A DNA stretch of 59,060 nucleotides from an uncultured Lachnospiraceae bacterium (GCA_946637865.1 CAMPBM010000001.1:1-59060), one strand, 5' to 3'. Positions 1 to 52,667 are shown, counted from the first letter of the stretch. Numbers and translations are program-made. The notes: generated by a model from the sequence alone, not told the origin.

Positions 1-70
1 AATATATTGCTAGCTCTTACATAATTTTAATTTTTGACTACTCTACTTTAATAGCTACCTGAATTGTAAC
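1..70 (-). mobile_element. Partial GTTACAG-type palindromic element (left-arm type, reverse orientation), truncated by the window start
   Basis: Reverse complement of 1-70 reads GTTACAATTCAGGTAGCTATTAAAGTAGAGTAGTCAAAAATTAAAATTATGTAAGAGCTAGCAATATATT. This is colinear with the left arm of the 34194 element and nearly identical to 59006-59060. Confidence 0.7.
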
Positions 71-31786: not shown

Positions 31787-32662
31787 TTAAATATTATTCA
31801 GTTTTTCTACCTCCAATTCTGGATCAATTTTTTCTTTTGCTAGTGCCATATACTTGACAATACCACTATATTCAATTCCCATTATATCAGCCAGTACAAA
31901 TGAATTTATGCCATTAGCTAACGCATTAACAGCAACGTAATCTCTAATATTACTATACGTTATTGACGGAATATCTAGCTTTTTACATATTGCATGAAGT
32001 CTATAATTTGCCGTCCTTGGTTCTACTGGAGTATTTGACCCTGAGGCCACATATCTCTCCACTTGCATGCTTTTGGCTAGTAAGATTCTCAAGAGCTTAG
32101 TCGGTATAGGAATGTCCCTCGGTGTAATATTTATTTCTTCTAAAACCGTTTTTGACTCATTGCCTTCATATGCACTTATTCTCTTCAAATTTCTTCTGAC
32201 TTTGATAACACCCTTTATCAAATCAACGTCAGACCATTTTAGAGCGCATAACTCGCTAATTTTAAGACCTGTGTACATTACACAAATTATTCCTAAATTA
32301 TTAGGAGTAATATCCTTTAGAACATAATCCTTTAGAACTTCAAACTGTTCTTTTGAAACCAGTTTGATATTTTCTTTCTTCTTTGGAATAATCTTTTCTT
32401 CATATCCGTTTTCGTTGAATTCCAGAACCCTTCCAACCAGTTGCATTATGCTACTTTTGGTTCTTTCTTTGTTCTTCCGTTGGCTGTTTTCTGTTAACTC
32501 TAATATAAGTTGAGTATCTTTTACATCAAACTCTCCTATTATAGGGTTTATTGATTTTAAACGATTTTCATACGTACTATATGACGCATGAGATACTCGC
32601 TCCTTTTGGTATTCTAGCCATTCCTGGGCTACCTCTCTGAATGTCCGTTTCTCTTTACTCAT
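31787..32662 (-). CDS. Tyrosine recombinase / phage-integrase family protein
   Basis: 291 aa. SAM-like N-domain. Box I-like TGLKISELCALKWSDVD and C-terminal NIRDY...GIVKY segments. Confidence 0.75.
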   Translation of the reverse strand: MSKEKRTFREVAQEWLEYQKERVSHASYSTYENRLKSINPIIGEFDVKDTQLILELTENSQRKNKERTKSSIMQLVGRVLEFNENGYEEKIIPKKKENIKLVSKEQFEVLKDYVLKDITPNNLGIICVMYTGLKISELCALKWSDVDLIKGVIKVRRNLKRISAYEGNESKTVLEEINITPRDIPIPTKLLRILLAKSMQVERYVASGSNTPVEPRTANYRLHAICKKLDIPSITYSNIRDYVAVNALANGINSFVLADIMGIEYSGIVKYMALAKEKIDPELEVEKLNNI

Positions 32663-34193: not shown

Positions 34194-34467
34194 GTTACAG
34201 GTCAGCCATTATTGTTGAGTAGTCCAATATAAGAATTATGTAAGAGCTAGCAATATATTAACAACGTAGTACAAAGCGCGCAGTTTGGTACGTTTAATCA
34301 AATGGATAAAAGGATTACACCATCACTAAAATCCTTCTCACACTTCAAAATCCTTTTATCTTTTGATTAAACCGACCAGCAAGCTTACGGAGTGTTAATA
34401 TATTGTAAGCGATTACATAATTCTTATATTGGACGGCTTATTGCAAAAGCCCATGCTGACCTGTAAC
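34194..34467 (+). mobile_element. 274-nt hairpin MITE, family A (GTTACAGGTCAGC...GCTGACCTGTAAC)
   Basis: 13-bp perfect termini, long imperfect arms, conserved core and an inner hairpin. 8-bp duplication GTACGCTG at 34186-34193 and 34468-34475. Confidence 0.9.
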
Positions 34468-37031: not shown

Positions 37032-37094
37032 GTTACAGGTCAGCCTTGAAACAAATCAAGACCGTCCCCAAATGTTTCAAGGCTGACCTGTAAC
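37032..37094. mobile_element. 63-nt mini-element: family A termini enclosing one D-type unit
   Basis: GTTACAGGTCAGCC-TTGAAACAAATCAAGACCGTCCCCAAATGTTTCAA-GGCTGACCTGTAAC. 8-bp duplication AAAAAATA at 37024-37031 and 37095-37102. Confidence 0.85.
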
Positions 37095-42356: not shown

Positions 42357-42630
42357 GTTACAATTCACGTTTTTTGCAATAAGCCGTCCAATATAAGAAT
42401 TATGTAATCGCAAAAAAACATATTAACATTCCGCAAACTTGCTGGCTCGGCTTTATCAAAAAGCAAAAGGAATATATGATGTCGTGTAAAGTTTCAATAC
42501 AGTTTATTCCTTTTGCACTTTTTGACAAACCTTGCCAAACTGCGCGTTTAGGGCTCCATTGTTAATATGTTTTTTTGTTCTTACATAATTCTTATATTGG
42601 ACTACTCAACTATAATGGCTGACCTGTAAC
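42357..42630 (-). mobile_element. 274-nt hairpin MITE, family A, inverted relative to 34194-34467
   Basis: Same length and the same outer arm blocks (GAGTAGTCCAATATAAGAATTATGTAAG; TTACATAATTCTTATATTGGACGGCTTATTGCAAAA), with the conserved core boxes. No clean TSD. Confidence 0.85.
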
Positions 42631-49376: not shown

Positions 49377-49769
49377 CTATTCGACATCAATCTTCCATAG
49401 TCCATGTTTATTACAATAAGCATATACCGTAGACCCTGGGATATATTTACAATGTGCAGCTACTTCTTCTCCAGCTTTAAAATAAGTTGTAACCTCTTTT
49501 CCATCAGAAACAATGCTAACCCACTCAATGTAATGTTCGTCTTCCATTACATGATTAACCTTAACAAATATTTTTCCATCCTTGACTTCATAAGTTGGAA
49601 CATGTTTCTCAATTGCAGCATCAACAGAATTTGGCTCTAGCACTGCCATTTTTTCGCCACAGCACTTTATTCCACAATCTTCTCCACACTTGCAATCTTC
49701 TATAACCTTAACCATAGCTCCACACTTCATACATTTTTTTATTAATAATTCTCTCTTCATAAAAATCAT
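49377..49769 (-). CDS. dfx: Desulfoferrodoxin (superoxide reductase)
   Basis: N-terminal Cys cluster CMKCG...CCGE, then EKHVP, MEDEHYIEW and CNKHGLW centre II ligand contexts. Confidence 0.85.
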   Translation of the reverse strand: MIFMKRELLIKKCMKCGAMVKVIEDCKCGEDCGIKCCGEKMAVLEPNSVDAAIEKHVPTYEVKDGKIFVKVNHVMEDEHYIEWVSIVSDGKEVTTYFKAGEEVAAHCKYIPGSTVYAYCNKHGLWKIDVE

Positions 49770-49858
49770 CCTTTCACTTTAATATGAGTTCATTATAACA
49801 CTCACTCAAACAATACGCAAACGCTTTTATTTAAATTTTTTACGTTCTATGAAACTAC

Positions 49859-50020
49859 GTTACAGGTTCAGGTGCCCATAATGTTGATGAAATATATTAA
49901 TACGAAGTGGAGTGCGCAGTTTGGCGCTCCCACCTAACGTCTTTTTCACATATCATAGCGCCAGCAAACGAACGGAGTATTAATATATTTCATCAACATT
50001 ATGGGCACCTGAATTGTAAC
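49859..50020 (+). mobile_element. 162-nt hairpin MITE, family B, second copy
   Basis: Identical to 22501-22661 except for one extra G at position 7. 8-bp duplication GAAACTAC at 49851-49858 and 50021-50028. Confidence 0.9.
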
Positions 50021-50024
50021 GAAA

Positions 50025-52667
50025 CTACATGTTACTTAACCTTTCCACCGTATTTTTCAACATTTCCTCATATTTAGCAAGTTTTTCCTTCTCCTCATTA
50101 ATCTTGCTTTCAGGAGCCTTACTTACAAAGCCTTGATTAGAAAGCATCTTCTTTGCTCTTTCTACCTCCGCTTCCAATCTTGTTTTTTCGTTTTCTAACC
50201 TCTCTTTTTCAGCTTCAATATCTACTAAATCCTCAAACGGAATATACAACTCTAAATCAGCTTGCATTATTGAAATTGCATTTGATGGAATATTTTCTTT
50301 ATTATTTTGAACAACTATCTCATCTCCAAAGGCTAATTTCTGTAGGAAAGTTTTACTTTGATTAATCAAATCCTCATATTTTTCAGTTACAAATAACAAT
50401 TTAGCTTTTTTTGATGGATGAACATTCATATTATTTCTAATATTTCTTACCTCTCCAATAATAGCTTTTAATATTTCAATCTCATTTTCCTCTGCTTCAA
50501 AATTTAAATCCATACTATATTTAGGCCATGCTGATGTCATTATTGTTTCATCATTATTATATAACTTTGTATAGATTTCCTCTGTTACAAAAGGCATTAT
50601 TGGATGTAGCATTTTCAAACTATACTCTAAAACTGTGTTTAATGTGTATTGTGCTTCTCTTCTAGTGCTACACTCTTTGTCATATAAACGAGGTTTAACC
50701 ATTTCAATATACCAGTCACAGAACTCGTTCCATATAAAATCATATATTTTCTGCGTAGCAACTCCTAAGTCATAATTATCTATGTTAGTAGCCATTTCTT
50801 GCGCTAACCTGTTAGCTTTTGAAATAATCCACTTATCTTCTTTGCATAGTTTTTCTATGTTATATTTTTCATCATAATCCTCTAGATTCATCAGTACAAA
50901 CTTTGAAGCATTCCATAATTTATTTGCAAAATTTGCACCCTGCTCCACCTTTGCAGGAATGTATCTTATATCATTTCCAAAAGAAATACCCAAAACCAAA
51001 GAGAATCTTAATGCATCTGCACCGTATTCAGCAATTACATCTAGTGGATCTACACCGTTTCCCAAAGTTTTACTCATCTTTCTACCTTGGTCATCTCTAA
51101 CCATTCCATGAATTATTATATCAGAGAACGGCTTTTTACCAACATATTCTAGACCTGAGAAAATCATTCTTGAAATCCACAAAGAAATAATTTCATAACC
51201 AGTTACAATAGTATTTGTAGGATAGAAAGTTTCTAAGTCCTCTGTTTTTTCAGGCCAACCTAATGTAGAAAAAGGCCATAAAGCTGAACTAAACCAAGTA
51301 TCTAATGTATCTGGATCTTGTGTTAACTTAGTATTACCACATTTAGAGCATGCATCTGGCATACTTCTAGAAACGTGTATTTCCCCACAATTATCGCAAT
51401 AATACGCTGGTATTCTATGTCCCCAATATAATTGTCTTGAGATACACCAATCTTGTAAATTTTCCATCCAGTTGAAGTAGGTTTTATCATATTTATTAGG
51501 AATAAACCTAATATCCCCGTTTCTTACTGCTTCAATAGCTGGTTTTGCAAGCTCTCCCATTTTTACAAACCATTGGTCTGAAATTGTTGGTTCTATAGTT
51601 GTCTTGCATCTCTCGCATTTTGCTACATTATGTGTATAGTCTTCTATTTTCACTAAATATCCTTGTTCTTCAAGCATTTTAACTATAATTGGTCTTGCTT
51701 CATACGCATTCATTCCTGCTACTTCTGGAATTAAATCGTTCATTATTAAATTACTATCAAACACTTCTACAAACTCCAAATTATTCTTCAAGCCTGCTTG
51801 ATAGTCGTTTGGATCGTGGCAAGGTGTTAATTTAACACAACCTGTTCCAAATTCCATATCTACAAAAGGATCAGCAATAATTGGAATTTCTTTATTCATT
51901 ATCGGCAAAATACATTTCTTCCCAATAAGATGTTTGAATCTCTCATCCTTTGGATTTACAGCAACACCAGTATCTCCTAGCATTGTTTCTGGTCTTGTTG
52001 TAGCTACTACTAAATACTCATCACTTTCGGTGTCGCTAGTTTTTATTGGATATTTAATATGCCAAATATGTGATGCTTCTTCTTTATACTCTACCTCTGC
52101 ATCTGAAATTGATGTTTTACAATTTGGACACCAGTTTATCATCCTTTTTCCTTTATAAATATATCCTTTTTCGTATAGTCTAAAGAATACCTCTTCAACT
52201 GCATTTGATAGTCCCTCATCCATGGTAAAACGACTTCTTGACCAATCACAAGAACATCCCATTTTACGTTGTTGTTTCTGTATTGTACCACCATATAGAT
52301 GTGTCCATTCCCAAGCTTTTTCAAGAAACTGCTCTCTAGTTAAATCTGATTTTTTTATTCCTTTCTCACGTAAACTTTGAACAACCTTCATTTCTGTTGA
52401 GATAGCAGCATGATCCGTACCTGGTAGCCAAAGCGTATTAAAACCTTGCATTCTCTTGTATCTTATTAAAAAATCTTGAATTGATGCATCTAGTGCATGT
52501 CCCATATGTAACTTACCTGTAACATTTGGAGGTGGCATCATAATACAATAACTCTCAGAATTTTTATCCATACTTGGTTTAAAATATCCGCTCTCCTCCC
52601 ACTTTTTATATAAAATATCTTCGAAATCTTTTGGATTATATTTGTCATTTAATTCATGTTTCATCAT
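50025..52667 (-). CDS. valS: Valine--tRNA ligase
   Basis: 880 aa. HIGH-type GKLHMGHAL, KMSKTLGN, C-terminal coiled coil. Confidence 0.95.
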   Translation of the reverse strand: MMKHELNDKYNPKDFEDILYKKWEESGYFKPSMDKNSESYCIMMPPPNVTGKLHMGHALDASIQDFLIRYKRMQGFNTLWLPGTDHAAISTEMKVVQSLREKGIKKSDLTREQFLEKAWEWTHLYGGTIQKQQRKMGCSCDWSRSRFTMDEGLSNAVEEVFFRLYEKGYIYKGKRMINWCPNCKTSISDAEVEYKEEASHIWHIKYPIKTSDTESDEYLVVATTRPETMLGDTGVAVNPKDERFKHLIGKKCILPIMNKEIPIIADPFVDMEFGTGCVKLTPCHDPNDYQAGLKNNLEFVEVFDSNLIMNDLIPEVAGMNAYEARPIIVKMLEEQGYLVKIEDYTHNVAKCERCKTTIEPTISDQWFVKMGELAKPAIEAVRNGDIRFIPNKYDKTYFNWMENLQDWCISRQLYWGHRIPAYYCDNCGEIHVSRSMPDACSKCGNTKLTQDPDTLDTWFSSALWPFSTLGWPEKTEDLETFYPTNTIVTGYEIISLWISRMIFSGLEYVGKKPFSDIIIHGMVRDDQGRKMSKTLGNGVDPLDVIAEYGADALRFSLVLGISFGNDIRYIPAKVEQGANFANKLWNASKFVLMNLEDYDEKYNIEKLCKEDKWIISKANRLAQEMATNIDNYDLGVATQKIYDFIWNEFCDWYIEMVKPRLYDKECSTRREAQYTLNTVLEYSLKMLHPIMPFVTEEIYTKLYNNDETIMTSAWPKYSMDLNFEAEENEIEILKAIIGEVRNIRNNMNVHPSKKAKLLFVTEKYEDLINQSKTFLQKLAFGDEIVVQNNKENIPSNAISIMQADLELYIPFEDLVDIEAEKERLENEKTRLEAEVERAKKMLSNQGFVSKAPESKINEEKEKLAKYEEMLKNTVERLSNM

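Follow-up and report, generated by a model that had tools for sequence, protein, structure and literature searches.

Several described systems bear on the element analyzed here. Bacterial MITEs, or miniature inverted-repeat transposable elements, include the RUP and Correia elements, and MITEAba12 is reportedly an example of such an element mobilized in trans by a DDE transposase. Target duplications of 8 bp are made by the insertion sequence (IS) families IS6/IS26, ISL3, IS256, IS66, and IS1595. IS30-type elements, whose duplications are 2-3 bp long, target their own inverted repeats, and HUH single-strand transposition and REPINs leave no target duplication. In the window, that is, the whole 59,060-nucleotide stretch that was analyzed (CAMPBM010000001.1:1-59060), a 162-bp element occupies positions 49859-50020 in the gap between valS and dfx. 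As contig 1, the window belongs to a metagenome-assembled genome (MAG) of 1.6 Mb, designated G000, which comprises 126 contigs and is 77% complete. We consider this element to be a MITE, namely a copy of a 161-bp non-coding DNA-transposon derivative with 44-bp terminal inverted repeats starting from GTTACAG and mobilized in trans, and we put the probability of this reading at about 85%. The features of the locus and of a second copy in the window are listed below, sub1 being the name used for the 161-bp element family.

49377-49769, minus strand: dfx-like gene, 130 aa, with a Desulfoferrodoxin domain; its start lies 89 bp past the left end of the MITE, downstream of it in the direction of transcription
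49851-49858, no strand: left 8-bp target-site duplication GAAACTAC, from flank comparison
49859-50020, plus strand: MITE copy 2, sub1 family, 162 bp, consensus with a G inserted after GTTACAG
49859-49903, plus strand: left terminal inverted repeat, 45 nt (44 in the consensus), beginning GTTACAG(G)TTCAGGTGCCC
49904-49976, plus strand: asymmetric core, 73 nt, richer in G+C; with the inner arm it makes up a module of about 100 nt conserved in several species of the genus
49977-50020, plus strand: right terminal inverted repeat, ending GGGCACCTGAATTGTAAC
50021-50028, no strand: right duplicate GAAACTAC, holding the valS stop TAG (50025-50027, minus strand)
50025-52667, minus strand: valS, 880 aa, frame unaltered by the insertion
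22493-22669, plus strand: MITE copy 1 (22501-22661) together with its duplication TTTTAAGA

A preliminary description of this DNA had held the two copies to be nearly identical, and direct sequence comparison bore this out: the sole difference between 49859-50020 (162 bp) and 22501-22661 (161 bp) is one additional G after GTTACAG in the former, the latter being the exact family consensus. The 44-nt arms are complementary except for one G/A mismatch, and the longest stop-free stretch is 40 codons, leaving the element no coding capacity. Both copies are bracketed by a direct repeat of exactly 8 bp, beyond which the next outward bases mismatch. As had been described, GAAACTAC occurs at 49851-49858 and again at 50021-50028, and TTTTAAGA was found at 22493-22500 and again at 22662-22669. 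The gene coordinates also agree with the earlier placement of the element between the valS 3′ end and the dfx upstream region, 4 nt from the valS stop codon, and the TAG starts within the right duplicate GAAACTAC. Similarly, the TAA stop (22664-22666, minus strand) of a 154-aa open reading frame (ORF) falls within the right duplicate TTTTAAGA of the copy at 22501-22661. Small size, lack of coding, terminal inverted repeats, a fixed 8-bp duplication, and dispersed copies are thus all present, as in MITEs.

An empty valS-dfx target site would read ...TATGAAACTAC joined straight to ATGTTACTT. valS and dfx are also adjacent in the closest relative, G024, the spacer of which is too diverged for alignment in an empty-site comparison; an exact-protein look-up of Dfx matched no record. 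These flanks bear on whether the copy could be an assembly artefact, i.e., a collapsed or misplaced repeat placed in the valS-dfx spacer. The assembly is fragmented and built from short reads, with contig breaks at these repeats, and the extra G falls at a site that varies among copies (GTTACAGTT versus GTTACAGGT), so that this single base could still be a consensus error. However, the identical 8-mer GAAACTAC on both flanks is not expected from a chimeric join of two loci, the flanking genes are neighbors in G024 too, and 14 other copies have like anatomy. We regard an artefact as highly improbable, because both flanks bear the same 8-mer.

BLAST of the genome recovered at least 15 full-length sub1 copies, and a further 12 contig tips ended inside sub1. 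All 15 copies are intergenic, and 13 carry a perfect 8-bp duplication, every site being different. Five are identical to the consensus and most others are one base off, with a mean pairwise identity of 98.5% and nearly all variation confined to positions 7-9 of the left end. From the near identity and the differing duplications of the two window copies, the preliminary description had concluded that transposition was recent. Taken together with a burst of at least 15 copies, 13 of them with their own perfect duplication, this comparison of copies supports the assignment of both window copies to a recent transposition burst. The family offers a clean natural case of a very recent MITE burst, which shows stop-codon insertions harmless to the gene, a preference for resident ends, and the swapping of interiors while a single terminus is conserved.

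The terminus, GTTAC(A/T)G(T/G)T(C/T)A, is common to at least five MITE families in the genome, with sizes of 51-397 bp. The inner 105 nt or so of sub1 is found again within sub2 at about 90% identity, and the further families agree in the outer 12-15 nt and differ in their interiors. Besides sub1, the families are as follows.

sub2, about 225 bp: ends GTTACTGTTTAACAG...CTGTTAAACAGTAAC, 8-bp duplications
Third family, about 281 bp: same outer terminus, other interior
Family with GTTACAGGTCAGCC ends: sizes of 63, 100, and 274-280 bp
Family with GTTACAATTCACGG ends: same outer terminus

Inward-facing terminus pairs 45-420 bp apart numbered 105 in the genome, and the flanking 8-mers matched, with at most one mismatch, in 38 of them. 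When the 8-mers one step (8 bp) further out were compared as a control, only 1 of the 105 pairs matched. The match of the flanking 8-mers is far beyond chance, and 29 cases of perfect 8-bp duplication were counted across families. The preliminary description had presented two copies of one element in the window. It was right as far as it went and understated the case, since at least four further elements with the same terminus are present and both window ends stop inside such elements, as listed here.

1-70, minus strand: closing 70 nt of a family-3 element, with ...CTACCTGAATTGTAAC as its end at position 70; the contig begins within the element
34194-34467, plus strand: 274-bp element, ends GTTACAGGTCAGCC...GCTGACCTGTAAC, 8-bp duplication GTACGCTG
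37032-37094, plus strand: 63-bp mini-element, same terminus, 8-bp duplication AAAAAATA
42357-42630, plus strand: 274-bp stretch with a GTTACAATTCACG terminus on the left and GGCTGACCTGTAAC on the right (two different families), no matching duplication; probably a composite, recombinant, or rearranged copy of two elements
59006-59060, plus strand: initial 55 nt of a family-3 element of about 281 bp (GTTACAGTTCAAGTGGCTATTAAAG...); the contig stops inside it

Both window tips are among the 109 of 252 contig tips that run out within a GTTAC-terminus element. The family is thus one of the chief reasons why the assembly of this organism breaks, and it limits MAG quality for the lineage and probably for other gut Clostridia too. 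Four other repeat families also terminate contigs of G000 (tips C8_L, C10_R, C83_R, and C125_R; C35_R, C62_L, and C74_R; C14_R, C25_R, and C90_L; C20_R, C59_L, and C104_L). Examples of such contig-ending repeats are GGGCACGCACGGTTTGATAAGGGGCGAACC..., a leader ending GGAATGGAGGTTATCATGG before different genes, and ...CTGCCTGTCGTACAAAAAG. The structured, G+C-rich sequence at C118:620-990 may be of this group as well.

Target sites are A+T-rich and otherwise have no strong consensus. Of the sub1 insertions, 7 of the 15 lie on the terminus of another superfamily element, mostly duplicating its bases 1-9, versus 4.6% of random sites with such a motif. The same preference for resident ends was seen in G016 and in a Muricoprocola MAG, where back-to-back ends lie 7-8 bp apart. 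Furthermore, an arms-only derivative of 75 bp at C41:10497-10571 has its own duplication, CAATTTTT, and mini-elements of 51-65 bp are also present, those of relatives measuring 52-65 bp. The core is therefore not required for movement.

The core is conserved. Copies of the central module of about 100 nt are numerous in 6 of 24 further species of the genus that were searched, at 75-94% identity, and the long arms around it differ among species yet remain complementary. Across G000 the core, which in the window occupies for example 49904-49976 and 22545-22617, points the opposite way to the co-directional genes around it 18 times out of 22 (18:4, p = 0.004). This bias could stem from a replication-strand effect or from one orientation being selected against, for instance a plus orientation in which a T-run follows the hairpin. 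In Rfam no family matched, the sole hit being a chance match to MIR807, a plant miRNA hairpin, at 31 bits against a cut-off of 113. Neither a promoter-like site nor a canonical terminator was found within the element. These data bear on the view that the element serves chiefly as a functional module, be it an RNA or a regulatory or terminator hairpin, selected between genes, with its spread being secondary. The conservation of the core within differing arms, the orientation bias, and the intergenic location of all copies would fit such a module. However, intergenic placement and orientation bias can also result from selection against harmful insertions, and the lack of an Rfam family, promoter-like site, or terminator and the mobility of core-less forms speak against it, so that we consider it unlikely.

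As RNA the element folds at -84.5 kcal/mol (z = -11.7) and as DNA at -51.2, in both cases into a very long hairpin. Such a hairpin, with arms that covary between species around a conserved core, resembles a repetitive extragenic palindrome (REP) or REPIN moved as single-stranded DNA by an HUH enzyme (RAYT or IS200/IS605-type). HUH transposition, however, makes no duplication, whereas the duplication here is fixed at 8 bp in the 29 perfect cases. Moreover, the families share the outermost 12-15 nt rather than the hairpin, and the 75-bp derivative and the 51-65-bp mini-elements are still mobile. An origin of this kind is very unlikely.

For a MITE mobilized in trans, the steps would be as follows. 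A transposase supplied in trans would bind the terminal 12-15 nt, cut the target with an 8-bp stagger, and join the element ends to it, and repair of the gaps would leave the 8-bp duplication. The copy at 49859-50020 would have inserted on the 8 bp GAAACTAC containing the valS stop, which would leave ValS unaltered and place the element between valS and dfx. Given a duplication with a constant length of 8 bp and ends that are terminal inverted repeats, we infer that the enzyme is a DDE-type transposase. Its gene would lie in unassembled or unbinned DNA of the organism or have been lost; short collapsed IS contigs are often dropped from MAGs.

The terminus is distributed patchily. When ends matching the 15-mer terminus with at most one mismatch were counted in genomes of the genus, G000 had 116, G001 27, G016 12, and G045 2, and an exact copy occurred in 7 of the 401 genomes of the order, G000 counted. 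The relatives G001 and G016 carry the same terminus with 8-bp duplications, and the gut of water deer and rabbits is the source of the carrier MAGs G001, G016, and G336. Among the matches listed in a scan of all species representatives, the terminus was also found in distant Clostridia. The clearest distant case is the MAG of Muricoprocola sp. (Lachnospiraceae), with a 133-bp element, 8-bp duplications, and 272 candidate copies. Human-gut contigs hold related elements with GTTACTGTTCAC ends and 8-bp duplications, and one metagenome contig has the same terminus with 8-bp duplications. Since the terminus is common to at least five families here and to unrelated MITEs in distant Clostridia, the enzyme would read the ends and not the interior. 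That Lachnospiraceae as well as this distant order have the terminus points to the enzyme having spread horizontally among rabbit and deer gut bacteria, with which the patchy, cross-family distribution fits.

The source of the enzyme was sought with seven transposase Pfam families (ISL3, IS256, IS66, IS1595, DDE_Tnp_1, rve, and IS240, PF13610). None matched on the window's contig, in agreement with the preliminary description, which had noted no transposase in the window; likewise, the recombinase at 31787-32662 proved to be a tyrosine recombinase as proposed, with a match to the Phage_integrase domain. The local absence extended further than had been claimed, to the assembled genome as a whole, where no matching transposase was found. 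ISL3, IS256, IS1595, DDE_Tnp_1, rve, and IS240 gave no match there, with no search aimed at Y1 (PF01797). The sole trace of the seven families in the genome was a 129-aa IS66 remnant with a GTAAGC end, and no intact copy of the IS families that make 8-bp duplications was present. A whole-genome search for ORFs between matching termini, suggested in the same description, was run, and no terminus pair enclosed a transposase gene. GTTAC...GTAAC pairs with an exact 8-bp duplication, searched up to 6 kb, were MITEs only, plus one chance pair inside mutS2, and looser terminus pairs 600-2900 bp apart enclosed ordinary genes only.

Beyond G000, BLAST of plasmid and phage records returned nothing or further MITE copies in unannotated gut contigs, viral and metagenome contigs gave chance matches or more MITEs only, and a full-text literature search with the terminal sequences met only unrelated primer matches. 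rve transposases were missing in 4 of the 6 other carrier genomes searched, as in G000, and PF13610 matches in five carriers were of the IS3 and IS481 types only. Candidate movers were set aside on their ends: ISL3 elements of relatives and carriers end in GGCTCT, IS256-like elements in GAGTAT (GAGTATCGAAAAG), the IS66 remnant in GTAAGC, IS481-like elements of G001 in TGTAGG, and IS1182 in CAGACTGTTGAC. In the Muricoprocola MAG the IS6-like IS ends in GGTAGTG (GGTAGTGTCAAGTAA), as do its homologues, and IS1595, present in the genus only in G013, is without a GTTAC terminus. An IS3 element of G001 was set aside on family membership, its ends not having been read.

Several of these results weigh against a MITE mobilized in trans. 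An autonomous element with matching ends, the one hallmark of MITEs missing here, was not found in the 77% complete genome itself, in the relatives checked, in the Lachnospiraceae carrier, or among the matches listed for species representatives in public scans. The carrier G016, which is 96% complete, matched none of the seven transposase families, and every transposase gene with readable ends in the carrier genomes has other ends. The contigs checked in G001 for IS4-type and IS4/IS982-like loci lack a GTTAC terminus. In addition, the conserved, strand-biased core is not accounted for by transposition alone. The partner of this MITE would be either in DNA lost to binning or length filters, or extrachromosomal, or lost, or outside the models used.

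The Rpn-like PD-(D/E)XK "putative transposase" genes (PDDEXK_2) were also weighed as the mover. Of about 22 such genes in G001, G227, and G336, 4-5 have a GTTAC-type element or solo end 50-450 bp upstream, far above chance. In G000, C81 carries a remnant, and another 3′ end lies at the C118 tip. Nevertheless, two of these upstream elements proved to be complete insertions, each flanked by its own duplication (GCTTAGAA and GAATGTCG), and hence are not ends of a gene unit, paralogous gene units end in other sequences, and 24 of 30 genus genomes contain the gene family irrespective of the terminus. A lone PD-(D/E)XK nuclease is not known for staggered-cut insertion. We therefore disfavor these genes as improbable in the extreme and read the association as a target preference for the palindromic region upstream. 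The upstream elements are L123 (G227:C30), L042 (G001:C9:11516-11739), L132 (G336:C42), and L140 (G227:C1), and the two complete insertions went into AATCGTA(C/T)GTCGAA...TTTGACGTACGATT, a palindromic motif conserved at the upstream border of the PDDEXK_2 units. These genes form paralogous units of about 1.1-1.4 kb (promoter region, gene, and terminator) with 90-93% identity at different loci (L128/L131 in G227, L132/L134 in G336, and L130/L133 in G001). The units have sharp boundaries at which inverted repeats or duplications were not seen.

Because the readable ends of known IS differ and the 96% complete G016 is without a match to the seven families, it is conceivable, if rather doubtful, that an uncatalogued transposase group moves the GTTACAG/8-bp elements and that the conserved strand-biased core is a selected functional module riding on this system. 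Identification of the transposase would either place the family in an IS group already known or establish a new group. Two loci of G001 were recorded alongside this search. L105 (G001:C81, a 1547-bp contig) encodes a 364-aa DDE protein that reaches the cut-off of no NCBIfam IS model (best scores, IS4 at 51 bits and IS982 at 44 bits). It may stand for an IS group that is poorly catalogued, and the contig is without a GTTAC terminus. L142 (G001:C34:14214-15450) is an IS481-like element with a 318-aa transposase and ends TGTAGGTTT..., located within a truncated GTTAC-type element and flanked by a 25-bp direct repeat, TTTTATTAATGAAGTTACATAAATG, which is unusually long for a target duplication.

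Compared with the known systems, the element, taken as a MITE mobilized in trans, shares long intergenic hairpin repeats and covarying arms with REP/REPIN-RAYT systems but, unlike them, shows an 8-bp duplication at nearly every copy. Like IS30, it inserts on or beside a resident terminus, as seen in the back-to-back ends 8 bp apart in G016, whereas its duplications are 8 bp long and rve transposases are missing in its own genome and in most of the other carriers searched. ISL3, IS256, IS66, and IS1595 have the 8-bp duplication in common with it but differ in their ends in the carrier genomes. The terminal inverted repeat consensus of IS6/IS26 is GGTTCTGTTGCAAA, in which positions 1-2 are GG and position 7 is G (PMC6807381). 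The present elements have the 8-bp duplication of that group and the G at position 7, and the sub2 terminus GTTACTGTTTAACAG agrees with it at 11 of 15 positions with one indel, a loose resemblance judged by eye; however, their ends begin with GTTAC and are without the GG. As in bacterial MITEs, the element is small and non-coding, has terminal inverted repeats and a fixed-length duplication, and occurs in many near-identical, intergenic copies with hairpin-forming transcripts. Unlike those MITEs, it combines a GTTACAG terminus and an 8-bp duplication for which no partner IS was found, several unrelated interiors occur under one terminus, and new copies favor resident termini. It is a further MITE of a well-known kind, and its points of interest are the orphan yet widespread terminus, the targeting of resident ends, and the strand-biased core.

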